DNA from: Escherichia phage vB_EcoM_CRP22
Direction: 5' to 3' (one strand)
Sequence record: OQ708377.1
DNA length: 64,000 nt
Made by a program: the position numbers and the translations under genes. Every line of letters starts with the position of its first letter. Position 1 is the first letter of the stretch. Positions 1,101 to 43,197 of the stretch are shown piece by piece. A model generated the notes under the pieces. That model ran no database searches. It saw only the letters and a list, made by a program, of their open reading frames with translations, and had not been told where the DNA came from.

Positions 1101-1223
1101 TATTTTATTCACATATGATGGTGACCCAGAGGTTGGAACAACCGATAAAATTTTATAAAAATTATAAATTTCGTAAATTTTACTCAATAAAAAGCCCCCA
1201 ATTAAGGAGGCTCTTAAGGTATT

Positions 1224-1904
1224 TTAAATCAGTGTTTCCAGAACTGTTTTTAATGATGACTTGGTTGTCTGATAAAAATGAGTGAACCCATTGTTGTTAT
1301 CGAATATCAGCATCATGATATCATCTCCCTTGATTGGGTATACTCGGATATCATAGTGAGAGCCATTAAAGACAGCAGAACCATTACAGAATACACTAAA
1401 ATCATCCACTGAGATATACTCTTCATGGCTTGTGATTTTTATACAGACACCTTTACTCGGTCTCTTAGGGTTGATATCTTCCATCACAGACATACTCTGT
1501 CCACCAAGAGATACCATAGTGACCACTTTACGGTTCTTCTGTCTAAGGTACATTTTAGCTTTCTGTAAAGTATCTTCATAGAACGGATAAGACTTCTCTA
1601 CAAAGATTCCTTCAAGTGGCTCTTTACCATTCTTAACTTCTCTGATATGCCGTACTGTTAAGACAAGCTGCTCTAGTCTGTTAAGGCTTTCTTTGGATAA
1701 TGCTTCTTGAACATCATTCCAGTCAAGTACCAAGTACTTTCTCTCTAATTCAAACTGTTTTTCCATATCTATCAAATCCTGAAAATACTTCTTAGTGATT
1801 TTTGACCACTCAGCAAAATGAATCTTTTTCTTCTTCCGAAGGAGAACCATATCTTTCAAGTTCATCCAATTCATTCTGCGAAGGTGTCCCGTAAGATTCT
1901 TCAT
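1224..1904 (-). CDS. hypothetical protein
   Basis: 226-aa ORF starting at ATG; no motif recognised by eye. Confidence 0.45.
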   Translation of the reverse strand: MKNLTGHLRRMNWMNLKDMVLLRKKKKIHFAEWSKITKKYFQDLIDMEKQFELERKYLVLDWNDVQEALSKESLNRLEQLVLTVRHIREVKNGKEPLEGIFVEKSYPFYEDTLQKAKMYLRQKNRKVVTMVSLGGQSMSVMEDINPKRPSKGVCIKITSHEEYISVDDFSVFCNGSAVFNGSHYDIRVYPIKGDDIMMLIFDNNNGFTHFYQTTKSSLKTVLETLI

Positions 1905-2069
1905 CGTACAATTTCATAGTGTGGTATAGAGTAAGTTTTATTTCCAGATGACATAGCTAAATCTTCTTTAGTAGAGTTATTCAGTATTGCTTTACGAACA
2001 ATTTCTTTAAGTTTCATTTTCACTACCTTGTTTGGTTAAGAGGGGCTATCAAGTAACCCCTTCAAGATT

Positions 2070-2297
2070 TTACTCAGAATCCTCAGATTTCTTTTCAGTC
2101 TTCTTCGTTTTCTTTTCAGCTTTCTTCTCAACTTCTGGTTTTGATTCTACAGTAGCTTCAATAGCAATGTCCAGAAGTTTTGAAAGGTCATCTTTAAGAA
2201 CCGTTACAGGTTGTTCATTGTAGTAGTTCTTGTCAAGGTGCTCTTTCAGTTCGTTCAGAGAGCTAAAGCCGAATGGCTGGATAGGTGTCTTAATCAT
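2070..2297 (-). CDS. hypothetical protein, Lys/Glu-rich C-terminus
   Basis: 75-aa ORF in same orientation as neighbours. Confidence 0.35.
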   Translation of the reverse strand: MIKTPIQPFGFSSLNELKEHLDKNYYNEQPVTVLKDDLSKLLDIAIEATVESKPEVEKKAEKKTKKTEKKSEDSE

Positions 2298-2373
2298 TAC
2301 TTAGTTTCTCCATAAGCATCTTTCAAGATTGCCTTGTTAATCATTTCAGCGATTGCAAAACGAACACATACAG

Positions 2374-2907
2374 CTATAATTGTAGGTTGCATTCTTTACT
2401 TACCTCTTCAAGTTTAACCTCAGAATCCTTAAGTCGTTTCTTATGAACTCTGAATCTTATTAGTGAGATGATAATACCAGCTAAAGGGACAGCATACAAG
2501 TACCAAACATCATATACCTTTGCAGTAATTTGTGTAATGGTTAAGTCTTGAGCTATGGAACTGATTGCTGATACTGCCAGTAATGTTGCTAGGAAAAATG
2601 CCAGTACCATGACAATACTTAGACAACCTCTGGCACGGTGTTCATGCTTAATGCACTTATTCTTTTCGTCAACAACCCTGTTGTAGTCGTTTGTAAAGTC
2701 TCTGTAGAAGGCTTTCAAGTATTCTTGATTGTAGCCTTCAAAGCAACCTGTACCGTACCAATAATCACCACCAAAGTGTGCTATGATACCGGTATCTCCA
2801 TTTGGTTTGGTTACTCTTAAAGAGACGTGATGACCAGTCTTCTGGTAGTCTATTTTATATCTTTCTTCGTAAATCATTTCCCAACCCCTCTCAATCGTTT
2901 GTTCCAC
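2374..2907 (-). CDS. hypothetical membrane protein
   Basis: 177-aa ORF with two hydrophobic segments (LSIVMVLAFFLATLLAVSAISSIA and LYAVPLAGIIISLI). Confidence 0.45.
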   Translation of the reverse strand: MEQTIERGWEMIYEERYKIDYQKTGHHVSLRVTKPNGDTGIIAHFGGDYWYGTGCFEGYNQEYLKAFYRDFTNDYNRVVDEKNKCIKHEHRARGCLSIVMVLAFFLATLLAVSAISSIAQDLTITQITAKVYDVWYLYAVPLAGIIISLIRFRVHKKRLKDSEVKLEEVSKECNLQL

Positions 2908-3107
2908 TCAAGGTCAACAAGTCTTTGCAGGACTTTCCCTCTAGGTGTTACACCTTTTAAGTCTGCATCGTAGCAACGGTAAAAGTCACCTTCAGCGTGT
3001 TTACCATAGCATTTCCTGATATTCTGACTTCTACGATATTGTTCTAATAGAGACAGTCTGTAGTAATCTTCAACTGTAGTTAGTTTTTTCATTCTTTCAC
3101 CACGCAT
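2874..3107 (-). CDS. hypothetical protein
   Basis: 77-aa ORF overlapping downstream gene start. Confidence 0.35.
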   Translation of the reverse strand: MRGERMKKLTTVEDYYRLSLLEQYRRSQNIRKCYGKHAEGDFYRCYDADLKGVTPRGKVLQRLVDLEWNKRLRGVGK

Positions 3108-3175
3108 CTTCTTAAGAAACTAAAAAGGGAACCACCTCTCGATAGCCCCCATCATAGTTAACCTTGTATATTCGG

Positions 3176-3757
3176 TCAAGAGTATTTTTTAGGCAGTAAT
3201 GCACTACGTTTGTTGCTCTCTTCACTCAACAGTGCGATAAAATCGTCACCTTTGCCTTTCCACGGGCTGAATGAAGGGATATGTTCACGAATGGCTTCAA
3301 TCACCGTCTTAAGTGCTGTATTTTTCATCCACCAGTCAGAATCTGCTGATGCTACAACATAGTAGCCACCTTCATCAGTCAGGATTGGCTCTGAGATACA
3401 TGGTGAAATCAGAGTGGTGATGATTGAACCATTATTCATGTAGTATGTGCGCTTCATAACCTTTTCAAGAAGCTTGTGAAGGTCACCAAACAGTGTTACA
3501 AGCTCTTTATGGTCAATGTCTTTTTCAAGATTTGCTCGATACTTCAAAAGTGCAGCATCAACTTCTCTGTCATTAAACTTGAAGTACTGGACTTCTTCAA
3601 CAAGACAAACACTGATGTTGTTGACATTCATAGTCAACTTGCAGACTTTTGCAGGAGAATTGATATTTGGTTGAAAAAGTGCAATACACCCTTCAATGTT
3701 TCCAAAATGTTGTACTAATGTCACTTGTGGAGTGATACTTTGTTGCTCTTCGGACAT
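3176..3757 (-). CDS. hypothetical protein
   Basis: 193-aa ORF. Confidence 0.45.
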   Translation of the reverse strand: MSEEQQSITPQVTLVQHFGNIEGCIALFQPNINSPAKVCKLTMNVNNISVCLVEEVQYFKFNDREVDAALLKYRANLEKDIDHKELVTLFGDLHKLLEKVMKRTYYMNNGSIITTLISPCISEPILTDEGGYYVVASADSDWWMKNTALKTVIEAIREHIPSFSPWKGKGDDFIALLSEESNKRSALLPKKYS

Positions 3758-4101
3758 TACAGTTTCCTCATTAAATACTTTTTAAGTTGTGTGTTAGGTT
3801 TCTCAAAAACTTCTATAGAAGAAATCTTGACAGATTCACCACGCATACCAGTATGTTTGAATATGTAGTACTCTAACATCCCTATATACTTTGCTGGTAA
3901 GTCATGTTTGACATACACCGTTACAGAATCTTCAAATTCAACAACCTTTGTACCATCCTTGTAGTTAAACTCTTTAGGATGGTCGTAGTTGTCGATATCG
4001 TACATTAAAAAGAGTCTTTTCCGTTGCATATCAAGCTTATTTGTTAAAGACTCTTTGATATCTGAGAAGTTTTTGTACACTGTGACATGGAGCTTACTCA
4101 T
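3757..4101 (-). CDS. hypothetical protein
   Basis: 114-aa ORF, start/stop overlap with neighbours (operon-like packing). Confidence 0.45.
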   Translation of the reverse strand: MSKLHVTVYKNFSDIKESLTNKLDMQRKRLFLMYDIDNYDHPKEFNYKDGTKVVEFEDSVTVYVKHDLPAKYIGMLEYYIFKHTGMRGESVKISSIEVFEKPNTQLKKYLMRKL

Positions 4102-4387
4102 CGTTAAACTCTCTGACGAAGAAATAGTTGACTTTGTTATTACCTACCATAAGGTCAAAGCAGGTATTCTCAAAAGGTTTGTTGTAGGCATCATATGAAG
4201 TGTATGTATCAGCTACTTTTTTGGTGTTGAGCTTTTTACTTGATGGATTTAAGAGGCCACCATACAGTTTCTTGATAGCCTCTTCTACAACAGACCAGAT
4301 AATTTCGTCAGTAATTTCTTCGTACAGGTCAAGTTCACGCTCTAGTGAGAAGTCACAAATAGGGAAAATAACCTGTACTTTACTCAT
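4094..4387 (-). CDS. hypothetical protein
   Basis: 97-aa ORF. Confidence 0.45.
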   Translation of the reverse strand: MSKVQVIFPICDFSLERELDLYEEITDEIIWSVVEEAIKKLYGGLLNPSSKKLNTKKVADTYTSYDAYNKPFENTCFDLMVGNNKVNYFFVREFNDE

Positions 4388-4803
4388 TAACGAATAACCT
4401 GTGTGACTTGAATTGCTTCAGTTACGGACAATTCACCTACTTTCTCTTCTTTGATAAAAGTGAAGGTGAGTTCAACAGGTTCTCCCTCTTCTTCTTCTTC
4501 TTCTTCTTCTTGCTCAACTGGAACACCATTAAGCTCATCAAAGATTGATTGGGTTGTCCAGTCTTCACCACCATCTGGGTAGTGAATTGCGTAGAGAGGG
4601 AACTCCCTGTCAAACCAACCAAATACAGGGCAGCCATCTTCATCATCTCGCATTCGATGAAGGGTGCTTCCAGACCCTGTAAAACGAAGGAATAAATCTC
4701 CGTTGCACTTGAATATTACTGCGTCGGCAAAATCAATGTCTTCTCGACCATCATGACCAAATGTGTCCACCTTTACTTGGATATCTCTAACATCTTTATT
4801 CAT
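4387..4803 (-). CDS. hypothetical protein with poly-Glu tract
   Basis: 138-aa ORF; EEEEEEEE encoded by (TTC)n on plus strand ~4487-4511. Confidence 0.45.
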   Translation of the reverse strand: MNKDVRDIQVKVDTFGHDGREDIDFADAVIFKCNGDLFLRFTGSGSTLHRMRDDEDGCPVFGWFDREFPLYAIHYPDGGEDWTTQSIFDELNGVPVEQEEEEEEEEGEPVELTFTFIKEEKVGELSVTEAIQVTQVIR

Positions 4804-5194
4804 AAAAACCTCTCTCTGCTTGTTCGATTTTCGCTTTTAGAACTTCACACCGTTCAATGTGATATCTGGCTTCATGTTCATGCGTCGCCAAAGTTCTTTC
4901 AAGAATGGTTTTATAGTAACCTGCAAGTTGCTCTCTTGTCAATGGGTTCTCTGAAATAATATCAAGACCACTTTCACCTAGAGTATTAAACTGGCCATGT
5001 TCATTTACATGGTAAGTCTCAAATTTGAATAAACAGTTATTAGCAGCCTCAATAGGTGAGAGTTCAACCAACTCAACGGTGAACATTGTATGCACTCTAT
5101 CACCAACTGTAACAATGTTACTTCCAATGATGCGTACAAGCGAACCATTGCGAGTGTACTTAAAAGTCCCAAAGTCACTAGCCCAAAGCTTCAT
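4796..5194 (-). CDS. hypothetical protein
   Basis: Start trimmed from the track ORF (4796..5305) to the internal ATG (MKLWASDF...) preceded by AAGGAG and lying just downstream of the endolysin terminator. Confidence 0.45.
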   Translation of the reverse strand: MKLWASDFGTFKYTRNGSLVRIIGSNIVTVGDRVHTMFTVELVELSPIEAANNCLFKFETYHVNEHGQFNTLGESGLDIISENPLTREQLAGYYKTILERTLATHEHEARYHIERCEVLKAKIEQAERGFYE

Positions 5195-5208
5195 AGTTTT
5201 CTCCTTAG

Positions 5209-5237
5209 AAAATAAAAAAGGCTCCCAAAGGGAGCCT
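5209..5237 (-). terminator. Rho-independent terminator after endolysin gene
   Basis: Hairpin ggctccc-aaa-gggagcc followed on the minus strand by a T-run. Confidence 0.55.
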
Positions 5238-5246
5238 ATGAAGATA

Positions 5247-5711
5247 TTACTTTGGATATATGTTGTCAAGATAAATGGCAGCTTCCATTCTACGTCTGTT
5301 TGCAAGACCTTTGGAGACTACTTTCTTACCTTTGACTGTAACCTTGTTCCACCACTGCATAGCTTCTGCACAACCGACCTTATTACCAGCGTTGTGGTGC
5401 TTGATAAATGTAGAGTCCTGCATAGCCGTGATACCAATGTTGTATGTTTCACTTACAAGTGCATCAAACTCATTCTGAGAAGTTGGAACCTTGATGGCTT
5501 TGTTAACTGCTGCAACGAACTTCTCAACATCTGCGAGAAGATACTGTTCAGCTTGTTCAGCAGTAATTTTCATACCCATCTTAACAGGTTTTCCGTCAAT
5601 ACGGATTGTACCATACCCGATTGTTGGGATTCCGGCAGAGTCTTCGTAAGCCTCTAACTTCAGGCCTTCAAAGAACTTAATGGCTTCTAAGCCTTTTCTT
5701 GAGAGTTGCAT
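5247..5711 (-). CDS. endolysin, phage lysozyme (glycoside hydrolase family 24-like)
   Basis: 154 aa; N-terminal LEAIKFFEGLKLEAYEDSAGIPTIGYG matches the conserved catalytic region of T4/P22-type lysozymes. Confidence 0.85.
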   Translation of the reverse strand: MQLSRKGLEAIKFFEGLKLEAYEDSAGIPTIGYGTIRIDGKPVKMGMKITAEQAEQYLLADVEKFVAAVNKAIKVPTSQNEFDALVSETYNIGITAMQDSTFIKHHNAGNKVGCAEAMQWWNKVTVKGKKVVSKGLANRRRMEAAIYLDNIYPK

Positions 5712-6355
5712 TATACCTCCACTACTGTGATAACTGTAACTGTAACTGTAACTGTTGCCGCATTAGATGTTACAGAGCCACCTGCACCAGTCACTACACA
5801 AGTGTAGATTCCTTCATCAGCAGCAGTTGCACCTTCTTTGGTGTAAGTTGCAGTAGTTGCATCGAGGATGTCTTCCTCACCTTTCTTCCACTGGTAACCT
5901 GTTGCACCTGTTGCCACAACATTCAGCGTTAAGGTATCACCTTCAGTGATTTCTTGATTGGTTGGCTGTTGAGTAATTGATGGTGGCTTGATAGCACCCT
6001 TCAGCTTAGCATTCAGCATTGAGAAGGGCTTAACTCTTGCCAGCCCTTCACAATAAACTGTATCAACATCTTTACCATTGATAATTGCATATTGTAAGTC
6101 CATGAAGAAGTCAGAAGTTCTCATTTGAGCACCGATGCTGTAAAGCAACTCATCACTAAATGGGACTTTGTAGTCTGGTTTGTAGTCAAACTTCTCAACT
6201 TCTGCAATATCAGCTTCAGGCCAATATGAACTATAGGTGAGTGGTAAAATAGCCTCTTGATATGTTCTAAAATCATATCTCTTACCAGCCTTTACATTTG
6301 CGATAAAGCCCTTCACAAACTCTTTGAAGTCTGGGTAAGTCTTTGCTTTAATCAT
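5711..6355 (-). CDS. hypothetical protein with C-terminal Ig-like domain; paralog of upstream gene
   Basis: 214 aa; C-terminal EGDTLTLNVVATGATGYQWKK...GIYTCVVTG is an Ig-like fold signature; N-terminal ~120 aa align with ORF 6352..6723 (FFMDLQYA vs FLMDIQYV); ends in TVTVTVTV from a hexanucleotide repeat. Confidence 0.55.
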   Translation of the reverse strand: MIKAKTYPDFKEFVKGFIANVKAGKRYDFRTYQEAILPLTYSSYWPEADIAEVEKFDYKPDYKVPFSDELLYSIGAQMRTSDFFMDLQYAIINGKDVDTVYCEGLARVKPFSMLNAKLKGAIKPPSITQQPTNQEITEGDTLTLNVVATGATGYQWKKGEEDILDATTATYTKEGATAADEGIYTCVVTGAGGSVTSNAATVTVTVTVITVVEV

Positions 6356-7588: not shown

Positions 7589-7980
7589 AGATAATCCTCT
7601 TGTCTTCTGTAATTTTGAAAGAACAGGTACAGACCAATTTCAGAGGATGAATAGTAGAGTAACTCTACCCTTTTTGATTCCTTACAGTGATTGGTATTTT
7701 TACCTTTCTTCGGGTTGTTTGATTTTCTCATTAAGTCTCCTTTGTAGAACAAGGCAGACCTACAGCTTTAAGTAAGATGGTACAGTAATCCATACAACAA
7801 GTCAAGAACTATTGCAAGTTAAAAAAGTTGTTGACAAAGGACTTGACAAGGTGTAGGCTTATAAATACTTAGAAGATAACTTAAAAGGTTCCTCTAAAAA
7901 GGCTATTTAAACAGATATCTTTCTGGATATCTATCTTTTATCTTAAAAGCCTTTTAAGAGGTCTTATAAGAGGCATACCA

Positions 7981-8352
7981 ATGAAAAACAGAACAAACAA
8001 AGGCCAGTTTAAAAAAGGCCAGTCTGGAAACCCATCTGGAAGACCAAAAGGCTCTCGTAACAAAAGCTCACTTGTAAAAGCTCAACTGACCATTGATAAT
8101 TCTGCTGAGTTTGCTGCAAAGTTGTTTGAGGCGATTGTTACAAGGGACGCTGCTAAGCTTGCAGAGTTCGGTTTGACGACTGACGATGTAAACCTGAAGT
8201 CAATGATGGAAGCTGGTAAAACTATCATGACTCACTCAGCAGGTGAGATGAAAGCAATTGCAGCAGACACTAAGAAAACCACTGATAATGGTGGTCAGCC
8301 ACAGACAGATAACAAACCGACGTTCTCTGCTGTAGCGACTCTCAAAAAATAA
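7981..8352 (+). CDS. hypothetical protein with basic Gly/Pro-rich N-terminus
   Basis: 123 aa; ATG preceded by AAGAGG; N-terminal GNPSGRPKGSRNK motif. Confidence 0.45.
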   Translation: MKNRTNKGQFKKGQSGNPSGRPKGSRNKSSLVKAQLTIDNSAEFAAKLFEAIVTRDAAKLAEFGLTTDDVNLKSMMEAGKTIMTHSAGEMKAIAADTKKTTDNGGQPQTDNKPTFSAVATLKK

Positions 8353-8433
8353 TTTTAAAAGGTGTTGACAGACTCTACAAAGTTGCTCTAAAGTCTGTCA
8401 CATCAAACAACAAATGAGAGAAGAGAGTAAAAT

Positions 8434-9849
8434 ATGAGCGAGTTATTTAAACATGCGCACCTTCATGTAGGTCGAACTGAAAATGGTGCTGTAAACCATA
8501 CTTCATCAATGTCTGCTCTGGTAGACTTCTACAAAGCCGCTGGCTCAAGCCGTAGCAATGTAGAAATCTTACCAGACCTGTTCTACAAAGCTTTGCGTGA
8601 GGATGTTGATGTTGCAGTTCGTATTTTACTGCATATGCGAGATGTACGAGAAGGTATGGGTGAGCGTAAAGCTTTCCGAACTGTTTTGCTTCAAACGATT
8701 GAAGATAAGGTTTTAGAACCTACACAGGTTCTTCGCATTATGGATAAGATTGCAGAACTTGGTCGTTTTGATGACTTCAAAATCTTCGTAGGTACTCGTT
8801 TCGAGACAGATGCCTTCAAACATTTAGAAGCAGCATTACTAGACCCTGCAACAGCAGGTTTAGCGGCTAAGTGGTTACCACGAGTAAAACCACGCCACAA
8901 ACAGTTTGTAAAACGTTTCTGTAAGTTTGCAAACTTAAGCGAGAAGGAGTATCGCACACTGTTATCTGCACTGTCTGATACGGTTGAGCAAAAAATCTCT
9001 GCTAATGAGTTTGGTAAGATTGACTACAGCAAGATTCCTTCACTCGCTGCTGCACGTTACCAAAAACTCTTTAACCGTAAAGATGGGGAACGTTACAAAG
9101 CTTACATCGAGTCCCTCTCAAAAGGTGAGGCTAAGATTAACGCTGGTGCTGTTTACCCATATGATGTGATTAAATCTATTAAGTATGGTAATGCAGATGT
9201 TGCTAACGAGCAGTGGAAAGCACTACCAAACTGGATGGCAGAAGGTGAAAACATCTTGTGTATGACTGATGTTTCAAGCTCAATGTCTTGGGTGAATCTT
9301 GGCTCAATTACTGCCCTTGATATTGGTGTATCACTTGCCTTGTATGTAGCAGAACGCAATACAGGTTGCTTTAAAGATGAGTTAATGGTCTATTCAACAA
9401 ACCCTCATTTCATTGAACTGAGTGGTGATTTACGAAACCGTCATCGTCAGGTGATGCGTCATGTTGAATATGGTTCAACTAACTTACAAGCAGCCTTTGA
9501 CCGCATTCTTGAGACAGGTAAGAGAAACAACTTGACTCAGAAAGATATGCCAAGTAAGCTTATCATCTTCTCCGATATGGAGTTCAATCAGGTTGATGGA
9601 GCTAACGGTCGTACAAACTTTGAAGCAATTCAGAGCAAGTACAAAAAAGCTGGATATGAGATGCCACAACTGGTATTCTGGTACTTAGCAAACCGTAATG
9701 GCACTTGCGAAGTGTCTGTTAAGGATAATGGTGTAGCAATGGTATCAGGGTTCTCTCCAGCCACTTTAAAAGCTCTGCTTGGTGGTGAGAAGTTTGACCC
9801 AATCAGCGTAATGCTCAAAGCAGTAATGATTGACCGTTACATCTGGTAA
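8434..9849 (+). CDS. von Willebrand factor A (vWA) domain protein; possible Ro60/TROVE-like protein
   Basis: 471 aa; MIDAS-type DxSxS motif (CMTDVSSSMSW) after a ~270-aa N-terminal region; Ro60 assignment is inference from context only. Confidence 0.6.
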   Translation: MSELFKHAHLHVGRTENGAVNHTSSMSALVDFYKAAGSSRSNVEILPDLFYKALREDVDVAVRILLHMRDVREGMGERKAFRTVLLQTIEDKVLEPTQVLRIMDKIAELGRFDDFKIFVGTRFETDAFKHLEAALLDPATAGLAAKWLPRVKPRHKQFVKRFCKFANLSEKEYRTLLSALSDTVEQKISANEFGKIDYSKIPSLAAARYQKLFNRKDGERYKAYIESLSKGEAKINAGAVYPYDVIKSIKYGNADVANEQWKALPNWMAEGENILCMTDVSSSMSWVNLGSITALDIGVSLALYVAERNTGCFKDELMVYSTNPHFIELSGDLRNRHRQVMRHVEYGSTNLQAAFDRILETGKRNNLTQKDMPSKLIIFSDMEFNQVDGANGRTNFEAIQSKYKKAGYEMPQLVFWYLANRNGTCEVSVKDNGVAMVSGFSPATLKALLGGEKFDPISVMLKAVMIDRYIW

Positions 9850-9867
9850 AAAGTTTTGAAAAGGGTA

Positions 9868-9896
9868 TTGACAATGTGTTTAATACCCTTTAATAT
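9868..9896 (+). promoter_or_regulatory. sigma70-like promoter embedded in an inverted repeat, upstream of tRNA array
   Basis: TTGACA - 17 nt - TAATAT; flanked by aagggtatt ... aataccctt. Confidence 0.5.
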
Positions 9897-10014
9897 GTTC
9901 TACATAGAAACGAAATGAGAGCTTTTCTAAGATACTGAAAAATATTTTAAAAAAGTTCTTGACAACCACTAAAAAATAATGTTAAAGTGGTTACATAGAG
10001 TTTGAAAAGTTTAT

Positions 10015-10091
10015 CTCTGTTTAGCTCAGCTTGGTAGAGCGTTCCGTTTGGGGCGGTAAGGCCGGAGGTTCAAGTCCTCCAACAGAGACCA
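10015..10091 (+). tRNA. tRNA-Pro (anticodon TGG)
   Basis: 7-bp acceptor ctctgtt/aacagag, D-arm GCTCAGCTTGGTAGAGC, T-arm ggagg-ttcaagt-cctcc, CCA encoded. Confidence 0.75.
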
Positions 10092-10098
10092 AATTAAT

Positions 10099-10176
10099 GT
10101 TCCAGTAGACAAAATGGTATAGTCACCACTCTTTCAAAGTGGATATTTGAGGGTTCAAATCCCTTCTGGAACGCCA
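10099..10176 (+). tRNA. tRNA-Glu (anticodon TTC)
   Basis: Acceptor gttccag/ctggaac, anticodon stem ccact/agtgg with loop ctTTCaa, T-loop ttcaaat, CCA. Confidence 0.75.
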
Positions 10177-10267
10177 GTTTTGACAGAAGACCAATTACAG
10201 CAAGTTTAATCTTATTCATCTGACACGAAATCGGACAAAGAAGAGATTTGGTCTGGTCATTAAGAAT

Positions 10268-10344
10268 TGCGGGTATAGAGAAAGGGCGTCTCACATGTCT
10301 CATTAGCATGGTATCGGCAGGTTCGACTCCTGCACCCGCCTCCA
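10268..10344 (+). tRNA. tRNA-Met (anticodon CAT)
   Basis: Acceptor tgcgggt/acccgcc, anticodon loop ctCATta, T-arm gcagg-ttcgact-cctgc, CCA. Confidence 0.65.
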
Positions 10345-10421
10345 ATTTTGCAGAAGACCGTATTCAGCAACAAACTACTTTTTGCGGATAAAAGAAAAAA
10401 CACGGTCTGGCAATGTATTAA

Positions 10422-10497
10422 GGTTAGGAAGCACATAAGGTATGTGCGGTCGCCTGTTAAGCGAATGGCACAGGGTTCGAATCCCTGACTAACCGCA
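10422..10497 (+). tRNA. tRNA-Asn (anticodon GTT)
   Basis: Anticodon loop ctGTTaa, T-arm caggg-ttcgaat-ccctg; acceptor has one mismatch. Confidence 0.6.
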
Positions 10498-10506
10498 AAA
10501 TTAAAT

Positions 10507-10594
10507 GTGTCGTTATCCCGTAGATGGTAGCGGTGGGGACTGTAAATCCCTTGTCATTGAGACTCGGTAGGTTCGACTCCTACACGGCACACCA
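10507..10594 (+). tRNA. tRNA-Tyr (anticodon GTA), long variable arm
   Basis: Acceptor gtgtcgt/acggcac, anticodon stem gggga/tccct with loop ctGTAaa, long extra arm, T-arm gtagg-ttcgact-cctac, CCA. Confidence 0.7.
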
Positions 10595-10616
10595 ACACTT
10601 AGCGAGATACTTAGTT

Positions 10617-11045
10617 ATGAGAGATGAAGTATACAAATCACAACTTGGTATGAGTTTAGGAACTGCACAAAACAGACTAGTAAAAGATTTGCTATTCGAT
10701 TTTATATGTAAAACAAATCAAAATAGATGTTTTCAGTGCGGAAAAGAAATGACTAGGGATGATTTCTCCATCGAGCATAAGGTTCCGTGGAGACATAGTG
10801 AAAACGCAAAAGAGCTTTTCTTTTCACTGGATAATATCTCTTATAGTCATCTTAAATGTAATATGAAAGCAGCAAGACCAGCACAGATAAGTGAAAGAAA
10901 ACATAAAACAGTTGAACACGGAACTGCGTATAGCTATTACAAAGGCTGTAGATGCGAGGAGTGTAGGTTGGCTAAGAATGCTGCTAGCAGGAAGAACTAT
11001 AGCCCAGAAAGGCGTAGGAAGAAGTATTTAAGAAATGGCACATAG
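10617..11045 (+). CDS. HNH endonuclease (free-standing, inside tRNA array)
   Basis: 143 aa from internal ATG; CFQCGKEM...EHKVPW...HLKCN zinc-binding HNH-like motifs; the track ORF start at 10524 overlaps tRNA-Tyr and is rejected. Confidence 0.7.
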   Translation: MRDEVYKSQLGMSLGTAQNRLVKDLLFDFICKTNQNRCFQCGKEMTRDDFSIEHKVPWRHSENAKELFFSLDNISYSHLKCNMKAARPAQISERKHKTVEHGTAYSYYKGCRCEECRLAKNAASRKNYSPERRRKKYLRNGT

Positions 11046-11049
11046 TTTT

Positions 11050-11125
11050 GGGGTATTAGTTTAGACGGTTAAAATACGGGATTGTCTCTCCTGAGCCGCG
11101 AGTTCGATTCTCGCATACCTCGCCA
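11050..11125 (+). tRNA. tRNA-Asp (anticodon GTC)
   Basis: Acceptor ggggtat/atacctc, anticodon stem cggga/tcctg with loop ttGTCtc, T-arm gcgag-ttcgatt-ctcgc, CCA. Confidence 0.7.
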
Positions 11126-11273
11126 ATTTTGAGAGGGCTATTTAGCCCCTCCCTTAAAGAGTTATTACGAGTATTCTTTAAAGGAGCAGAAGACCAAATT
11201 CAGCAAGTTACTTAAAATTTCAAGCCAATTTAATTTTGAAAAATTTAAAACTTGGTCTGGCTTAACAAATTTA

Positions 11274-11404
11274 CAGAAGACCGTTTACAGCAAAACTTAA
11301 ACAATCTATTTCTCGGTAAAGAAAAGGCGAAGGTTCGATTCCTTCACTCGGCAGATGTCGAGTTGGTGTAATGGTAGCACTTAAGATGATAAACAACGGT
11401 CTGG
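11274..11404 (+). ncRNA. Candidate structured ncRNA: circularly permuted tRNA-like module enclosed by an 8-bp stem (possible Y-RNA/YrlA-like element)
   Basis: Linear order is stem strand agaccgtt, T-arm gaagg-ttcgatt-ccttc, acceptor 3' strand actcggc, 4-nt loop, acceptor 5' strand gtcgagt, D-arm gtgt-aatggta-gcac, stem strand aacggtct; the acceptor halves pair over 7 bp. Confidence 0.35.
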
Positions 11405-11405
11405 T

Positions 11406-11551
11406 AATTATCTTTGCAGTAGCTTATGTGGCTAATTATGTCGTCCCATGAGTGCCGATGAATTTCCTTAGCATGATTCTAGATTAGCTTAATAGGGAAT
11501 GACTCTACAGACCCTTTAGCAAGGTCTGCGTAGGTTACTGCAAAGATAATT
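11406..11551 (+). ncRNA. Candidate structured RNA domain closed by a 16-bp stem
   Basis: aattatctttgcagta (11406-11421) is the perfect reverse complement of tactgcaaagataatt (11535-11550), enclosing ~112 nt with an internal cagacc...ggtctg hairpin. Confidence 0.3.
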
Positions 11552-11555
11552 TAAT

Positions 11556-11631
11556 GGAAGTGTAGCAGAATGGTGATGCGGCAGACTTTTAATCTGACAG
11601 GCGATGGGTTCGAATCCATCCACTTCTACCA
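11556..11631 (+). tRNA. tRNA-Lys (anticodon TTT)
   Basis: Acceptor ggaagtg/cacttct, anticodon loop ctTTTaa, T-loop ttcgaat, CCA. Confidence 0.6.
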
Positions 11632-11635
11632 ATAT

Positions 11636-11712
11636 GGTTCAGTCGCAGATAAGGTAATGCAGGGGTCTCATAAGCCCTATGAATGTGGGTTCGATTCCCA
11701 TCTGAACCTCCA
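11636..11712 (+). tRNA. tRNA with anticodon CAT (Met, initiator-like, or Ile2)
   Basis: Acceptor ggttcag/ctgaacc, anticodon loop ctCATaa on a stem with three consecutive G-C pairs, T-loop ttcgatt, CCA. Confidence 0.7.
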
Positions 11713-11714
11713 AT

Positions 11715-11790
11715 GCTGTGAAAGCACATATGGATGTGCATTCGGCTGATAACCGAAAGGAAGAAGGTTCGAATCCTTCTCACAGTACCA
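11715..11790 (+). tRNA. tRNA-Ile (anticodon GAT)
   Basis: Acceptor gctgtga/tcacagt, anticodon stem ttcgg/ccgaa with loop ctGATaa, T-arm gaagg-ttcgaat-ccttc, CCA. Confidence 0.7.
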
Positions 11791-11805
11791 ATTTCAATAA
11801 AGTTG

Positions 11806-11834
11806 TTGACATTGAGATGTGACCACTTTATAGT
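11806..11834 (+). promoter_or_regulatory. sigma70-like promoter inside the tRNA array
   Basis: TTGACA - 17 nt - TATAGT, preceded by A-rich tract aaagttg. Confidence 0.5.
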
Positions 11835-12126
11835 AACTAAAATACTTCATAATATGTATAATTCAAACACCAATACATGAGTATTAGACGTAATGCAATG
11901 TGGGGAAATTTGTTGTACATATTCTGAATAGTTTTCGTTGCGTAGCGTCTATTTTGCAAATTTAAAATAAATGCAAACGACAATGTTTTTCTGGCAGTAG
12001 CTTGATAGGCTAAACACCAGTGAGGTCTTCCAATCCCTCATCAAAGAATTTGGCGTACTCGCCCACGGTATGATTAATAAGGTGGGCATCTTTAAGGGTT
12101 TTTAAGAGAGTCTTTAAAGATAATTA

Positions 12127-12208
12127 CGGGGCGTATCTCAGCTGTCTTCTAAACAGCCGTTAACCGAGTAAGTGGAGTATGCGGGTTCGAGTCCTGCCGC
12201 CTCGACCA
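12127..12208 (+). tRNA. Atypical tRNA-like gene, possibly Arg (anticodon TCT); D-arm not resolvable
   Basis: Acceptor cggggcg/cgcctcg, T-arm gcggg-ttcgagt-cctgc, CCA; clean stem gctgt/acagc with loop ctTCTaa but no canonical D-arm by eye. Confidence 0.4.
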
Positions 12209-12222
12209 ATTTTGGAGAAATC

Positions 12223-12570
12223 ATGAAAACTTGTATTAGGTGCAAACTTAGCAAGGATGAAAATGATTTCTACATGAAAGATGGTAGAAGAACTCATTCA
12301 TACTGTAAAAAGTGTGTTAATGAGCAAACCATAGAAAGACAAAGAGCACTTAAACTCTCAGCTATTGAGTACAAAGGTGGTGTTTGTCAGGATTGTGGTA
12401 AAAGGTATCATCCAGCAGTGTATGACTTCCATCATTTGAATCCTTCAGAGAAAGATTTTAACATTGCTCATAGAAGAAGTCTTAAGTTCTCTCAGGAGCT
12501 TAAGAACGAACTTGACAAATGTGTTTTGCTATGTTCAAATTGCCATAGGGTAAGACATGCAAAGTATTAG
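12223..12570 (+). CDS. HNH endonuclease (free-standing, inside tRNA array)
   Basis: 115 aa from internal ATG (MKTCIRCK...); CxxC pairs and FHHLNP...LLCSNCHRVRH HNH motif; the track start at 12172 overlaps the preceding tRNA-like gene. Confidence 0.7.
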   Translation: MKTCIRCKLSKDENDFYMKDGRRTHSYCKKCVNEQTIERQRALKLSAIEYKGGVCQDCGKRYHPAVYDFHHLNPSEKDFNIAHRRSLKFSQELKNELDKCVLLCSNCHRVRHAKY

Positions 12571-12707
12571 TTAGCAGATTGCTTAGACGACCTTATCGGG
12601 TCTCCGTGTAAGGAGGTGGTCTGTATCTCATGTTTTCCAGAACATGTAAATAATCTGAGAAGGGGCTTTACAGTGTTGAGATAATACGGTAAGCTTCGAA
12701 TTATAAT

Positions 12708-12790
12708 ATGGGACGATGTTAAGACTCTAAGGCATGAGCAACGGCTTCCAACACCGTTTCAAAGGGGTTCAACTCCTCCGTCCCATGCCA
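12708..12790 (+). tRNA. Atypical tRNA-like gene with an apparent 9-nt anticodon loop
   Basis: Perfect acceptor atgggac/gtcccat, T-loop ttcaact, CCA; best anticodon helix aacgg/ccgtt encloses cttccaaca (9 nt); D-region longer than canonical. Confidence 0.4.
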
Positions 12791-12803
12791 AAGTCTTATT
12801 AGG

Positions 12804-12893
12804 GGTAGGTAGCGGCTAATGGTAGCCAAACTGTCTTGAAAACAGTTGCCACTGTAGAGATACGGTGAGGGTTCGACTCCTTTACTTACCGCC
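12804..12893 (+). tRNA. tRNA-Ser (anticodon TGA), long variable arm
   Basis: Acceptor ggtaggt/acttacc, anticodon stem actgt/acagt with loop ctTGAaa, long variable arm, T-loop ttcgact. Confidence 0.7.
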
Positions 12894-13148
12894 TAATAAG
12901 ATTTAAAGCCAAGCTTCATTCGGATGTTGCTTTGGTATCCCTCGTGTATTGTCGTACACACTGATAAAGCACCTGGTAGGTGTCACGGAGAAGAGATAAT
13001 ATCAAGCTCTCCAAAGGTTCTAGTCACCGGATTAAACAAGACTATGCAAAGACCAATTTAGGTCTTTTTAGAGGGCTTCTAAGGTTATTACAGCTTGTTG
13101 TGGAACCTTGTTGCTTAGGTTCTTAGAAGTTCTCTAAAAAGATTTAAT

Positions 13149-13225
13149 GCACCTATAGCCCAATTGGTAGAGGCAGCAGACTTAGAATCTGTTCAGTGTG
13201 AGTTCGAATCTCTCTAGGTGTACCA
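13149..13225 (+). tRNA. tRNA with anticodon TAG (Leu-type), short variable arm
   Basis: Acceptor gcaccta/taggtgt, anticodon stem gcaga/tctgt with loop ctTAGaa, T-loop ttcgaat, A73, CCA. Confidence 0.6.
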
Positions 13226-13232
13226 AATTAAT

Positions 13233-13308
13233 GCAGGTGTAGCAAAATGGTTATGCGGCTGACTCTTAATCAGTAAGACGATGGGTTCAATTCCCTCCAC
13301 CTGTACCA
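13233..13308 (+). tRNA. tRNA-Lys (anticodon CTT)
   Basis: Acceptor gcaggtg/cacctgt, anticodon stem gctga/tcagt with loop ctCTTaa, T-loop ttcaatt (weak T-stem), CCA. Confidence 0.55.
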
Positions 13309-13314
13309 AACATT

Positions 13315-13390
13315 GGGGTCATAGTTTATATGGTTAAAATTCGAGTTTTGCAAACTTGGGAACTGAGTTCAATTCTCAGTGACTCCACCA
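13315..13390 (+). tRNA. tRNA-Ala (anticodon TGC)
   Basis: Acceptor ggggtca/tgactcc, anticodon stem cgagt/acttg with loop ttTGCaa, T-arm ctgag-ttcaatt-ctcag, CCA. Confidence 0.7.
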
Positions 13391-13396
13391 ATTAGT

Positions 13397-13471
13397 GCAT
13401 CCATAGTTTAAACGGGAAAATTACAGTCTTCCAAACTGAGGTTGAGGGTTCGATTCCCTCTGGATGCTCCA
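13397..13471 (+). tRNA. tRNA-Gly (anticodon TCC)
   Basis: Acceptor gcatcca/tggatgc, anticodon loop ctTCCaa, T-arm gaggg-ttcgatt-ccctc, CCA. Confidence 0.7.
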
Positions 13472-13478
13472 AATTAAT

Positions 13479-13555
13479 GCTGCTTTCGTATAATTGGCTA
13501 TTACACATCCCTTGTAAGGATGGAAATGCAGGTTCGAGTCCTGTGAGCAGCACCA
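13479..13555 (+). tRNA. tRNA-Thr (anticodon TGT)
   Basis: Acceptor gctgctt/gagcagc, anticodon stem catcc/ggatg with loop ctTGTaa, T-arm gcagg-ttcgagt-cctgt, CCA. Confidence 0.7.
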
Positions 13556-13651
13556 ATTCAGAGGTCAAGTGAAAGACCGCTTTGAGTCAACTGAAGACCG
13601 TAACAAATCCCACGGAGTTGAGTTAGCGGCACAACTTCAGACCTCTTTCAT

Positions 13652-13726
13652 ACTCGCTTAGTTTATATGGTAAAACATCAACCTTACAAGATGAAGAAAA
13701 AGGTTCAAGTCCTTTAGTGAGTACCA
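13652..13726 (+). tRNA. tRNA-Val (anticodon TAC)
   Basis: Acceptor actcgct/agtgagt, D-stem gttt/aaac, anticodon loop ctTACaa, T-arm aaagg-ttcaagt-ccttt, CCA. Confidence 0.65.
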
Positions 13727-13727
13727 T

Positions 13728-13805
13728 GTTCCAGTATCCCAATTGGCAGAGGATGCAAGCTCAAACCTTGTATTAGTGACGGTTCGAATCCGTCTTGGAA
13801 CACCA
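13728..13805 (+). tRNA. tRNA with anticodon CAA (Leu-type), short variable arm
   Basis: Acceptor gttccag/ttggaac, anticodon stem gcaag/cttgt with loop ctCAAac, T-arm gacgg-ttcgaat-ccgtc, A73, CCA. Confidence 0.6.
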
Positions 13806-13810
13806 ATTTT

Positions 13811-13885
13811 GCAGGATTAGTTCAAATGGATAGAGCAACAGTCTACGAAGCTGTTAATAGGGGTTCGAATCCCTTATCCTGCGCC
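13811..13885 (+). tRNA. tRNA-Arg (anticodon ACG)
   Basis: Perfect acceptor gcaggat/atcctgc, D-arm TAGTTCAAATGGATAGAGC, anticodon loop ctACGaa, T-loop ttcgaat, CCA. Confidence 0.75.
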
Positions 13886-13892
13886 AATTAAA

Positions 13893-13969
13893 TAGGGGAT
13901 TAGTTTACAAGGTTAAAACCTCGGTCTTTGAAATCGAAGAAGTTGGTTCAATTCCAACATCCCCCGCCA
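13893..13969 (+). tRNA. tRNA-Gln (anticodon TTG)
   Basis: Acceptor aggggat/atccccc (1-72 mismatch), D-stem gttt/aaac, anticodon stem tcggt/atcga with loop ctTTGaa, T-arm gttgg-ttcaatt-ccaac, CCA. Confidence 0.65.
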
Positions 13970-13971
13970 AT

Positions 13972-14050
13972 GCTCCATTACTCCAATTGGCAGAGAGGCC
14001 AGACTTAAAATCTGTGTTATGTATCGGTTCGAATCCGATATGGAGTACCA
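13972..14050 (+). tRNA. tRNA with anticodon TAA (Leu-type)
   Basis: Acceptor gctccat/atggagt, anticodon loop ctTAAaa, T-arm atcgg-ttcgaat-ccgat, A73, CCA; D-arm parse ambiguous. Confidence 0.55.
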
Positions 14051-14055
14051 AATTT

Positions 14056-14131
14056 AGCGGTATAGCATAACTGGCAATGCAGCAGTCTCTGAAGCTGTCT
14101 TATTAAGGTTCAAATCCTTATGCCGCTGCCA
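14056..14131 (+). tRNA. tRNA-Gln (anticodon CTG)
   Basis: Acceptor agcggta/tgccgct, D-stem gcat/atgc, anticodon stem gcagt/gctgt with loop ctCTGaa, T-loop ttcaaat, CCA. Confidence 0.65.
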
Positions 14132-14162
14132 CTTCTAAGGGTTCTTACGAGAGTCCTTAAAT

Positions 14163-14238
14163 GTGGCCTTATCATAAAAGGTAATGACCCATGCTGTGAA
14201 CATGGTCTATACGGGTTCAAATCCCGTAGGTCACCCCA
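14163..14238 (+). tRNA. tRNA-His (anticodon GTG)
   Basis: Acceptor gtggcct/aggtcac, anticodon stem ccatg/catgg with loop ctGTGaa, T-arm acggg-ttcaaat-cccgt, CCA. Confidence 0.7.
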
Positions 14239-14243
14239 ATTTA

Positions 14244-14320
14244 TAGTCCAAGTAGCTTATATGGTTAAAGCGCGTGTCTGAAAAACATGAGAAGAGGGTT
14301 CAAATCCCACTGGACTACCA
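14244..14320 (+). tRNA. tRNA-Phe (anticodon GAA)
   Basis: Acceptor tagtcca/tggacta, D-stem gctt/aagc, anticodon stem cgtgt/acatg with loop ctGAAaa, T-loop ttcaaat. Confidence 0.6.
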
Positions 14321-14337
14321 ATTTCAAAGGTGCTTAA

Positions 14338-15071
14338 TGAAAGAGATGACAGAACAAGGTAAGGAGATTTTTAATCTCTTAAAAACCGGTAGAGGGTTTT
14401 CTAATCCCCTTATTACTGGTGCAGCAGTTCTCGGTGGAACCGTAGCTACCTCTACATCACTTGTAAACTCTATTAGCTCTGTAACAGACCCTACAATAAA
14501 GGATAAACTTGTTGCTGCTGGACTTACAACAGTTCTGCTTAACAGCTTTACAACGAGTCTGACAAGCACTACATCAACCACTAAAACACCGACAGATTAC
14601 GGTCAAAAGTCCATTGATGAGTTTTCATCACGTATGCAGGTAGCAAAAGGATACTCTAATGTTATGGGTGCAGCAGGAGAGCAAGTTGGTTGTACACCAT
14701 TTAGTGGTATTATGGGTGTTGCTACAGAGTATGGTCAAAAAGCTATTGACACAATTAACAGTGCACTAGACGGTGTTAATGATGTATTAAGTGACTTACA
14801 AGATGCTATTGATAAAGGTCTTGATACTATTTCTGATTTAGCTAACCAAGCTGTTAGTAAGATTAATGAAGGTATTTCGAAGATTACAGCTTATGCAGAT
14901 GAAGTTGTGCAGATGATTGAAGAAGAAGCTGCCCTTATTGCAGAGTACCTTAAAACGAATATCAATGGGTTCTTAGCAGGTATCTTACCAGACTGGTTTG
15001 ACGATGCTTGTAAAACTGGTGTGATTGATACTATTGCAACACCAGAAATGAAGAACGCATTACAGAAATAA
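14338..15071 (+). CDS. hypothetical Ser/Thr-rich protein encoded inside the tRNA array
   Basis: 244 aa from internal ATG (MKEMTEQGKEIF...); the track start at 14274 overlaps tRNA-Phe; long S/T-rich region followed by a helical C-terminus. Confidence 0.45.
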
Positions 15072-15072
15072 T

Positions 15073-15165
15073 GGAAGATTAACCCTAAAAGGTAAGGGAG
15101 CAGTTTGCTAAACTGCCAGTAGCTGAGAAATCGGTGTACCAGTTCAAGTCTGGTATCTTCCTCCA
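15073..15165 (+). tRNA. tRNA-Ser (anticodon GCT), long variable arm
   Basis: Perfect acceptor ggaagat/atcttcc, anticodon stem gcagt/actgc with loop ttGCTaa, long variable arm, T-arm accag-ttcaagt-ctggt, CCA. Confidence 0.75.
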
Positions 15166-15169
15166 ATTT

Positions 15170-15245
15170 GAATCCGTGACAGAAATGGCTATGTGCCTGT
15201 CTGCAAAACAGGTTTATAAGGGTTCGAGTCCCTTCGGATTCTCCA
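15170..15245 (+). tRNA. tRNA-Cys (anticodon GCA)
   Basis: Perfect acceptor gaatccg/cggattc, anticodon stem cctgt/acagg with loop ctGCAaa, T-arm aaggg-ttcgagt-ccctt, CCA. Confidence 0.75.
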
Positions 15246-15345: not shown

Positions 15346-15409
15346 CAGAGTTATACTTTATAAGAAGACTTATACAGTATGTCTCTGACGTACATTGTGG
15401 TTTCTCCTT

Positions 15410-15433
15410 GACGGTCTCTGTACCGTCTTTTTT
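15410..15433 (+). terminator. Rho-independent terminator
   Basis: gacggt-ctctgt-accgtc followed by TTTTTT. Confidence 0.6.
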
Positions 15434-15469
15434 AAGGAGAAACATAATTAATTATTTGGAGAAAACATA

Positions 15470-38589: not shown

Positions 38590-38618
38590 TTGACTGATTG
38601 TTAAGATGGTGTTAATAT
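38590..38618 (+). promoter_or_regulatory. sigma70-like promoter
   Basis: TTGACT - 17 nt - TAATAT, followed by inverted repeat aagatggtg ... caccatctt. Confidence 0.5.
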
Positions 38619-38661
38619 TCTTTATGGGTATTCTCACCATCTTGGCTGATGAGGTGATTAA

Positions 38662-41857: not shown

Positions 41858-42157
41858 TTAATCTGCCAGCCTTAAATTAAAATTAACACCAAATTTTTCA
41901 CATACTTCCAACATAAACTCAAGAGAGACATTACCAGTGAGATTAATTATGTTGGATACACGAGCCTGAGAGATACCACAAATTTTAGCAACTTGCTCTT
42001 GAGAAAGACCTCTGGATTTAATCTCTCTCTTAAAACGATGTGCAACGAAATCTCTCATTTCGTCTACATCCATTGGACAAATATAACTCTCCATTTCAGC
42101 CTCTCTGTCAGCCTCCCAATCATCTTGTGGAGCATAAGGGTCAAAAACCTCATTCAT
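41858..42157 (-). CDS. helix-turn-helix (XRE-like) DNA-binding protein
   Basis: C-terminal LSQEQVAKICGISQARVSNIIN is an HTH signature; start set to the internal ATG (MNEVFD) which has a GGAAG RBS. Confidence 0.55.
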   Translation of the reverse strand: MNEVFDPYAPQDDWEADREAEMESYICPMDVDEMRDFVAHRFKREIKSRGLSQEQVAKICGISQARVSNIINLTGNVSLEFMLEVCEKFGVNFNLRLAD

Positions 42158-43140: not shown

Positions 43141-43197
43141 GTACCCGTTGGTTTATGCTGCTCAGTATACTCACCAAATTTTCTATGTCAACAACTT

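Follow-up and report, generated by a model that had tools for sequence, protein, structure and literature searches.

The DNA analysed here, called the window in what follows, is a stretch of 64,000 nucleotides (nt) from Escherichia phage vB_EcoM_CRP22 (sequence record OQ708377.1), a Felix O1-like myovirus of the genus Felixounavirus (subfamily Ounavirinae), and the elements in question are sigma70-type promoters overlain by inverted repeats. At the first of them, an open reading frame (ORF) for a DUF5681 protein (7981-8352) is followed by a promoter, and then come an ORF for a DUF2828/DUF7788 protein (8434-9849), two tandem promoters and the 25 transfer RNA (tRNA) genes of the window, at 10015-15245. 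The 1.9 kb around this finding are 97-98% identical to Shigella phage Z31 and to about 250 other phage records, and an Rfam scan at gathering thresholds returned tRNAs only and no other known RNA family. Felix O1 was reported to lack an RNA polymerase of its own, and its genome paper states that temporal regulation is not understood (PMC3185647); Felix O1-like phages were also reported to lack proteins that redirect the promoter specificity of the host polymerase. The literature searched, namely the Felix O1 genome paper and later Felixounavirus papers, does not mention these repeats.

We defined promoters without reference to repeats, as TTGAC[ACT]-N16-18-TAnnnT, and scored any perfect inverted repeat with a loop of up to 30 inside a 90-nt frame around each promoter. 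Start sites were predicted from the position of the -10 (about 7 nt after it) and were not mapped, and each hairpin was folded as RNA and compared with 200 dinucleotide shuffles.

The promoter at 8365-8394 (plus strand, TTGACA-18-TAAAGT) begins 13 nt past the stop codon of ORF 7981-8352 and lies upstream of ORF 8434-9849. The left arm of its inverted repeat covers the -35, and its right arm extends over the end of the -10 and over the +1 region (TGACAGACT / AGTCTGTCA, 8366-8374/8392-8400, plus strand; 9 bp, loop 17; RNA fold -15.6 kcal/mol, z -3.3). A minus-strand mirror site, GTGACA-18-TAGAGT, also exists at 8366-8400; it was found at this one site only, and the reading of the element as a bidirectional promoter was dropped. 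The promoter at 9868-9896 (plus strand, TTGACA-17-TAATAT) is the first of the two tandem promoters before the tRNA cluster. Its repeat begins 11 nt past the stop codon of ORF 8434-9849 (AAAGGGTATT / AATACCCTTT, 9860-9869/9882-9891, plus strand; 10 bp, loop 12; -13.5 kcal/mol, z -4.6). A weaker case (z -2.0) follows on the same strand at 9959-9992, where TTGACA-18-TAAAGT is combined with 7-bp arms, AACCACT / AGTGGTT, at 9964-9970/9986-9992.

The other four modules are scattered over the window. At 38590-38618 (plus strand), 8 nt past the stop codon of the 793-amino acid ORF 36201-38582, a promoter-like site TTGACT-17-TAATAT is overlapped by a stem-loop at 38600-38646, which has G.U extensions and an inner 7-bp stem besides its perfect arms (AAGATGGTG / CACCATCTT, 38603-38611/38635-38643, plus strand; 9 bp, loop 23; -23.7 kcal/mol, z -9.2). 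The minus-strand promoter at 42792-42820 (TTGACA-17-TATTTT) precedes ORF 42364-42747 and an operon that holds a helix-turn-helix (HTH) ORF, and its -35 lies in the loop of a 13-bp repeat whose arms show no variation in 27 sequences (AAATAAGCTATAA / TTATAGCTTATTT, 42793-42805/42827-42839, minus strand; -17.8 kcal/mol, z -4.4). Also on the minus strand, the promoter at 43164-43191 (TTGACA-16-TATACT) starts 7 nt past the stop codon of the DNA ligase gene (43198-44301); the left arm of its repeat extends into the -10, which the right arm follows at a distance of about 20-30 nt (TGGTGAGTA / TACTCACCA, 9-bp arms, 43135-43143/43168-43176, minus strand). Finally, the promoter at 53321-53349 (plus strand, TTGACA-17-TAGAAT) is placed 8 nt past the stop codon of ORF 53164-53313 and upstream of ORF 53386-54243, with the left arm of its repeat within the spacer and the right arm starting at the last base of the -10 (AGAGTATCAA / TTGATACTCT, 53329-53338/53349-53358, plus strand; 10 bp, loop 10; -10.2 kcal/mol, z -4.9).

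An earlier note on this DNA had described palindromes at four TTGACA promoters and had asked for promoter prediction as a check. All four are present as perfect inverted repeats, with arms of 10 bp instead of 9 bp at 9860-9891, and a sigma70-like match overlaps each of them. TTGACA itself occurs at 8365, 9868 and 53321, and the hexamer at 38590 is TTGACT. The arrangement was also said to recur, as it does: 9959 (plus strand), 42820 (minus strand) and 43191 (minus strand) are three further promoters with an inverted repeat.

The seven promoters are alike in their hexamers (TTGACA or TTGACT, and TAnnnT), in a spacer of 16-18 nt and in 9-11 consensus matches out of 12. An A-rich tract precedes the -35 in five of them (AAAAGGTG, GAAAAGGGTA, AAAAAAGTTC, ATAAAATCTG and AAAAGTTG) and is absent at 38590 and 53321. 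The loops of the seven repeats are 10, 12, 15, 17, 21, 23 and 24 bp long. In 7/7 the 5' arm occupies the upstream region, the -35, the spacer or the -10, that is, it precedes the predicted start, and the 3' arm is located at or after the -10. Five modules begin 7-13 nt past a stop codon on the same strand, as measured to the -35 at 8365, 38590, 43191 and 53321 and to the repeat itself at 9868, and polymerases coming from upstream must therefore cross them. The modules at 9959 and 42820 come after another promoter or a noncoding RNA region.

We then asked how often such repeats occur elsewhere. Perfect repeats of at least 9 bp were found at 6 of the 14 intergenic sigma70-type promoters in the window (at least 7 bp at 8 of the 14), compared with 1.1% of 90-nt windows overall and 1.9% of those in noncoding DNA away from promoters, giving binomial P values of 5e-9 and 1e-7, respectively. 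Inside coding sequence, where the same promoter pattern has 13 matches, the best arms were 4-6 bp long, with one exception that adjoins a terminator. Six of the seven hairpins were more stable as RNA than all 200 shuffles (z -3.1 to -9.2), the one at 9959 being marginal (z -2.0). We used Z31 positions 1-25400, the part of the genome outside the window, as a hold-out: repeats of at least 8 bp were present at 8 of 12 noncoding promoter-like sites against a background of 4.1%, although several of these sites are copies of one repeated cassette and so are not independent. These results confirm that the palindromes at promoters are real and that chance is excluded.

We compared the arms among relatives of the phage. 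The promoter at the ligase junction, AAAGTTGTTGACA-N16-TATACT, is kept across lineages and the repeat that overlies it changes. Its arms are TGGTGAGTA / TACTCACCA in the window type, AAACATAGCAAGT / ACTTGCTATGTTT in lineage L049, TAGTGGGT / ACCCACTA in L050 and L064, CCTGACGGGT / ACCCGTCAGG in L051, and TCCGGTAGTT / AACTACCGGA in L099, a Felixounavirus variant from a metagenome scan with a generic promoter pattern. Five lineages thus hold five unrelated arm sequences at one position, with a perfect complement in each, and in all five the first base or bases of the -10 form the end of the left arm, the right arm being located 20-30 nt downstream. In the alignment of the five, both sides changed in 6 of 8 pairs and 90% of cells were paired; the unpaired cells all came from L099, where the stem is shifted by one base. 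Only 29-47% were paired when the partner was slid by 1-3 columns, and 0 of 500 shuffles reached the observed values. The genes behind this promoter in the lineages are small and begin with MKK, and the two that were read further have signal-peptide-like starts.

Changes that preserve pairing were also seen at other modules. At 53321, one pair is T-A in the window, T.G in most relatives and C-G in a divergent lineage, and another pair changes from A-T to G-C. The stem of that divergent lineage still begins immediately past the -35 and ends immediately past the -10, although its arms are GGGAGTAC / GTACTCCT, its loop is different and its -10 is TAAGAT. At 8365, the stem of a divergent lineage is 10 bp long and includes two wobble pairs, and a change inside the -10 has added a C-G pair. 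A U.G pair at 38590 becomes C-G in four relatives, and in the L019-L022 lineage the arms at 9959 are replaced by AACACT / AGTGTT. The suggestion of the earlier note that the arrangement is functional is borne out by this conservation of pairing through compensatory change. As judged from these sequence comparisons, it is base pairing itself, and not the arm sequence, that is under selection.

Which molecule folds was approached through the changes that affect one arm only. Seven such transitions were found (at 8365, 9868, 9959 and 53321), and on the sense strand the result is G.T (G.U) in 7/7 and A.C in none, a pattern with P of about 0.008 under strand-symmetric mutation. This points to the sense strand and, most simply, to RNA read through from the upstream gene. 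The position of the arms is informative as well. The earlier note had offered RNA 5' stem-loops as one explanation, but the 5' arm lies upstream of the predicted start at every module, and the promoter's own RNA would therefore lack this arm and could not form the hairpin. Only upstream read-through RNA or single-stranded DNA would then be able to fold.

Similar elements have been described in other phages. The promoter-early stem-loop (PeSL) cassettes are known from the T4-like phages RB49, phi1, PST/T4 and nt-1/KVP40 (Arbiol et al. 2010, PMC2839356; Comeau et al. 2014, PMC4122927). Those of RB49 and phi1 have a strong sigma70-like promoter with an A/T-rich upstream region and lie between a stop codon and the next ribosome-binding site; the position of the stem-loop varies (before the -35, between the two boxes, over one or the other of them, or immediately past the -10), G-T pairs are found in the stems, and one stem-loop that was tested terminated as well as rrnB T1 in a reporter (PMC2839356). 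PeSLs were suggested to serve as insulators of ORFan genes and as mediators of modular shuffling (PMC2839356; PMC4122927). Another trait of PeSLs is that recombination between neighbouring elements gives rise to mini-circles. The window modules resemble them in their sigma70-type promoters, in where the stem-loops lie with respect to the -35 and -10 (fold z -2 to -9), and in their intergenic placement between an upstream stop codon and a downstream Shine-Dalgarno sequence and ATG of co-oriented genes. A link to small variable genes, and to cassettes exchanged among close relatives, would be a further parallel. The modules differ in that the repeated motif of about 100 bp with GGGG...CCCC stems, which we looked for in the window, is absent there, the seven stems being unique and mostly A/T-rich. 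They also differ in belonging to a phage of the Ounavirinae and in their loops of 10-24 nt, usually with no U-tract.

Such a GGGG...CCCC cassette is present in Z31 outside the window. At 1900-6200, between small genes, Z31 carries the repeated cassette taAAGTACTTTACAaGGGGCTTA-N11-13-TAAGCCCCagATAAAGAGCTTT, which contains a TTTACA-17-TAnnnT promoter with the left arm in the spacer and the right arm abutting the -10. There are six TTTACA-aGGGG...CCCC promoter sites in Z31, five with the stem GGGGCTTA...TAAGCCCC and one with GGGGTTATC...GATAGCCCC, and between rIIA and rIIB the sequence TTGACAAGGGGCTtcaaAGCCCCTTAGAAT has the stem TTGACAAGGGGCT..AGCCCCTTAGAAT inside the spacer. The Z31 cassette is a closer match to PeSLs than the window modules are. 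Within Z31 1185-6208 (L185), two intergenic cassettes are repeated between ORFans, one being the TTTACA-GGGGCTTA..TAAGCCCC promoter/stem-loop. The other consists of TTGACActgatttttagataggcTAAATT and then caacGGGGAGGtaatgaCCTTCCCC; here the predicted start precedes the hairpin, which would make it a true 5' hairpin.

The modules share with intrinsic terminators a hairpin right after the stop codon, but five of the seven repeats have no U-tract, the loops are large, and the hairpin overlaps the promoter instead of preceding it. When the seven were scanned with the intrinsic terminator definition (G+C-rich stem, short loop, U-tract), 9860-9891 alone was flagged, and this class was not adopted for the modules. 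Canonical terminators next to promoters do exist in the window. On the minus strand at 3127-3179, the promoter TTGACC-17-TATGAT (3179-3151) is followed at once by the hairpin GGGGGCTATC..GGTGGTTCCC and the T-run TTTTT (3150-3127), and a near-identical hairpin is listed as Felix O1 terminator t29 (PMC3185647). Likewise, on the minus strand at 5219-5269, the promoter TTGACA-17-TATCTT (5269-5241) is separated by 3 nt from the terminator AGGCTCCC ttt GGGAGCCT with the T-run TTTTT (5237-5219). At both 3179 and 5269 the predicted start falls inside the 5' arm, so that the promoter's own RNA would escape termination. We also considered the DNA hairpin promoters of N4 type, which have a 5-7 bp stem and a 3-nt loop and are read by a phage-encoded RNA polymerase; the loops of 10-24 nt and the sigma70 hexamers of the window elements, and the reported lack of an RNA polymerase in Felix O1, led us to reject this class.

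Taken together, we favour, with a probability of roughly 0.55, the view that these elements are composite promoter/stem-loop modules of PeSL type whose RNA hairpin forms only in transcripts that read through from upstream. What was observed is that the repeats exist, are enriched at promoters, have the geometry described, share no sequence and are under selection for pairing. In this model, a strong host sigma70 promoter with an A/T-rich upstream region is placed a few bases past the stop codon of a co-oriented gene. A polymerase coming from that gene would transcribe both arms, and the read-through RNA would fold into a hairpin at the end of the upstream cistron. The hairpin may attenuate or terminate transcription, or it may block 3' exonucleases and set the 3' end. 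RNA from the embedded promoter would start inside or past the repeat, would lack the 5' arm and would pass freely, and each module would thus close one transcription unit and open the next in minimal space. We infer both the identity of the folded molecule as read-through RNA and the effect of the hairpin on that RNA.

Several points weigh against this model. The 7:0 wobble pattern could partly reflect strand-biased mutation. Among 21 elements, the minimum free energy favoured the sense strand in 13 and the antisense strand in 7 (Wilcoxon P 0.16), and since the sense strand is not significantly more stable, neither the strand nor the molecule, RNA or DNA, is settled by folding. The hairpins are weakened by loops of 10-24 nt. 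Tails resembling a U-tract were found in only two of the seven (9860-9891 and 42793-42839), and with most stems lacking a U-tract and having such loops, most of the hairpins are not canonical intrinsic terminators. Nor does every promoter carry the feature: at 6 of the 14 intergenic promoters, including 7831, 48498 and 45205, the best arms are only 4-5 bp, and a 7-bp case at 11806 is not significant (z -1.3). In two genomes of Kolesnikvirus, a group of more distant relatives (L062 and L063; 41 kb examined), intergenic promoters have repeats of 5-7 bp only and the junction at the DUF2828 gene is absent, so that the feature could not be traced deeper. Finally, no transcript mapping was found in the searched literature on Felix O1-like phages.

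A different role for read-through hairpins is also conceivable. In the lambda sib element and the T7 intercistronic RNase III hairpins, formation of the full hairpin depends on where the transcript starts or ends, and RNAs of the same gene can be treated differently. By analogy, the window hairpins may discriminate between transcripts by origin, with host RNases or the phage cleaving, destabilising or translationally silencing the read-through copy only. We consider this quite unlikely. Typical RNase III substrates have longer stems than those of the window (9-13 bp plus short inner stems). If true, it would be a genome-wide version of lambda sib-type retroregulation and could supply part of the unexplained temporal control in Felix O1-like phages.

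The repeats overlap core promoter elements, as operators do, and the earlier note had proposed that they are sites for a repressor, naming an HTH ORF as its candidate. That ORF (41858-42187, minus strand) does encode a Cro/C1-type HTH protein (Pfam HTH_3, E 5e-11), but no link between it and the repeats was found. Double-stranded sites at which a dimeric repressor such as this one shuts promoters off would resemble the operators of lambda OR/OL and other Cro/CI-type systems in their dyad symmetry over the -35 and -10, and the case is best at 42820, where the invariant 13-bp repeat flanks the -35 that drives the operon with the HTH gene. Covariation of base pairs can also be mimicked when two half-sites change symmetrically. 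As a mechanism common to the modules, however, operators were not upheld: the seven arms share no 6-mer, their best ungapped matches to one another cover 4-7 of 7-10 positions, and the 13-mer half-site of 42820 is not found elsewhere in the window more often than by chance. In contrast to lambda-type operators, there is no common half-site, the arms are 10-24 bp apart and differently placed relative to the -35 and -10 at each promoter, and they are replaced wholesale between lineages. The five unrelated arms at 43191 precede small MKK genes and not genes for DNA-binding proteins, and would call for one repressor per promoter per lineage; moreover, a protein site would not favour one-sided changes that are all of wobble type on one strand. 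We therefore regard operators as improbable and would retain them mainly for 42820.

Perfect Watson-Crick arms of 9-13 bp and the nearly equal folding of the sense and antisense strands would also be expected if the structure formed in DNA, as a cruciform or single-strand hairpin through which supercoiling or replication would set promoter strength, or as a structure-specific recombination signal that moves cassettes. PeSLs were proposed as mediators of recombination, homology breaks fall at promoter hexamers (11837, 43164 and 52986), and a whole cassette is swapped at the ligase junction. Against such a role, relatives accept sense-strand G.T pairs, which are A.C mismatches on the other strand, several of the breakpoints are explained instead by HNH homing endonuclease genes, and loops of 10-24 nt disfavour cruciform extrusion; we hold a DNA-level structure to be possible but unlikely. 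It is very improbable that the repeats have no function at all, being chance palindromes in A/T-rich promoter DNA of low complexity or quasi-palindromes that template switching keeps perfect as DNA is replicated. Such switching can transfer a mutation between the arms in the absence of selection, but most relatives retain wobble intermediates, contrary to what rapid homogenisation would produce, and different sequences hold the same position at the same promoter in five lineages. The enrichment over noncoding background (P about 1e-7), the six hairpins unmatched by any of 200 dinucleotide shuffles and the recurrence in held-out Z31 sequence likewise speak against it. The probability left over by the PeSL-type model and these three rivals belongs to mechanisms outside them.

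With promoter parts that are alike, PeSL-type modules can serve as joints for the exchange of gene cassettes. The homology breaks lie at the end of the -10 of the promoter at 11806 (11837), in the -10 at 43191 (43164) and in the -35 of the promoter at 52982 (52986), but a conserved motif beside variable DNA ends BLAST alignments anyway. Three ORFs with HNH matches are found in the window, at 10524-11045 and 12172-12570 (both weak, below the Pfam cut-off) and at 45202-45735 (HNH_3 and AP2, E 9e-15). Many relatives lack these ORFs or have other sequence in their place, and several of the homology breaks, including two within the tRNA cluster, are accounted for in this way, which weakens the breakpoints as evidence for cassette shuffling. 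The evidence for cassette exchange at the modules is suggestive only.

The modules provide a concrete unit of transcriptional organisation for phages that are widely used in typing and biocontrol of Salmonella and E. coli. They would extend the PeSL idea beyond T4-like phages and add to it the compensatory evolution of stems, which was not found in the PeSL text that we consulted. For engineering, they mark natural insulated joints that could be used to insert or exchange genes. The same design may occur widely: the metagenome scan with the generic promoter pattern returned mostly unrelated contigs, and in unrelated ones (L139, L080/L131, L137; L169, L081, L118, L157) a generic promoter is overlain by long inverted repeats, such as TTGACATATGCC..GGCATATGTCAA, with the -35 included, and ATACTTGCACC..GGTGCAAGTAT, beginning in the -10.

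Some features of the neighbouring sequence were also noted. The gene at 8434-9849, which is flanked by two modules and lies directly upstream of the tRNA cluster, is annotated in some records as a Ro-like RNA-binding protein. Its product is present in Felixounavirus and close relatives; in a 709-record tblastn listing the DUF2828 protein had no match in the Kolesnikvirus range, and identities jump from 84% to 46%. Between the promoters at 43191 and 42820, the minus strand at 42840-43135 is noncoding, G/T-rich and C-poor, with GGT-like repeats and a G3N2G3N7G3N2G3 motif. Its sense (minus) strand has no ORF of at least 22 amino acids, and the start of the stretch is hypervariable among relatives. 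A 19-bp RNA hairpin at 43090-43138 (minus strand; -20 kcal/mol, z -5.0) is contained entirely in the transcript predicted for 43191; it has several sense-strand G.U pairs, and a C-G pair is changed to U-A on both sides in relatives (tcttCtaaGagg vs tcttTgaaAagg).

The exact 12-mer CTTGACAAGGTG has three copies in the window, at 7842-7853 (plus strand), 48509-48520 (plus strand) and 45195-45206 (minus strand), and another in Z31 at about 23802 (minus strand). It lies 12 nt past another TTGACA in two divergent control regions, and the third window copy is downstream of an HNH gene. None of the promoters with CTTGACAAGGTG has an inverted repeat, and the 12-mer looks like the mark of a separate promoter class or a regulator box. 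The divergent control regions at 7860-7960 and 48540-48640 contain several boxes resembling CTTAAAAGG or TTAAAAG, and similar words precede the -35 at 8365 and 9868. The first part of the window (1-1200) is noncoding and dense in short degenerate repeats of the CTTGTTAR / TGTTAAG type; of the 21 exact CTTGTTAR matches in the window, 11 fall in the first 1 kb, all on the plus strand. This repeat stretch may be a genome-end, packaging or replication-origin region. Lastly, at 15400-15443 a 10-bp inverted repeat (GTTTCTCCTT..AAGGAGAAAC) surrounds a terminator-like hairpin (GACGGT..ACCGTC with a T-run), forming a nested stem.

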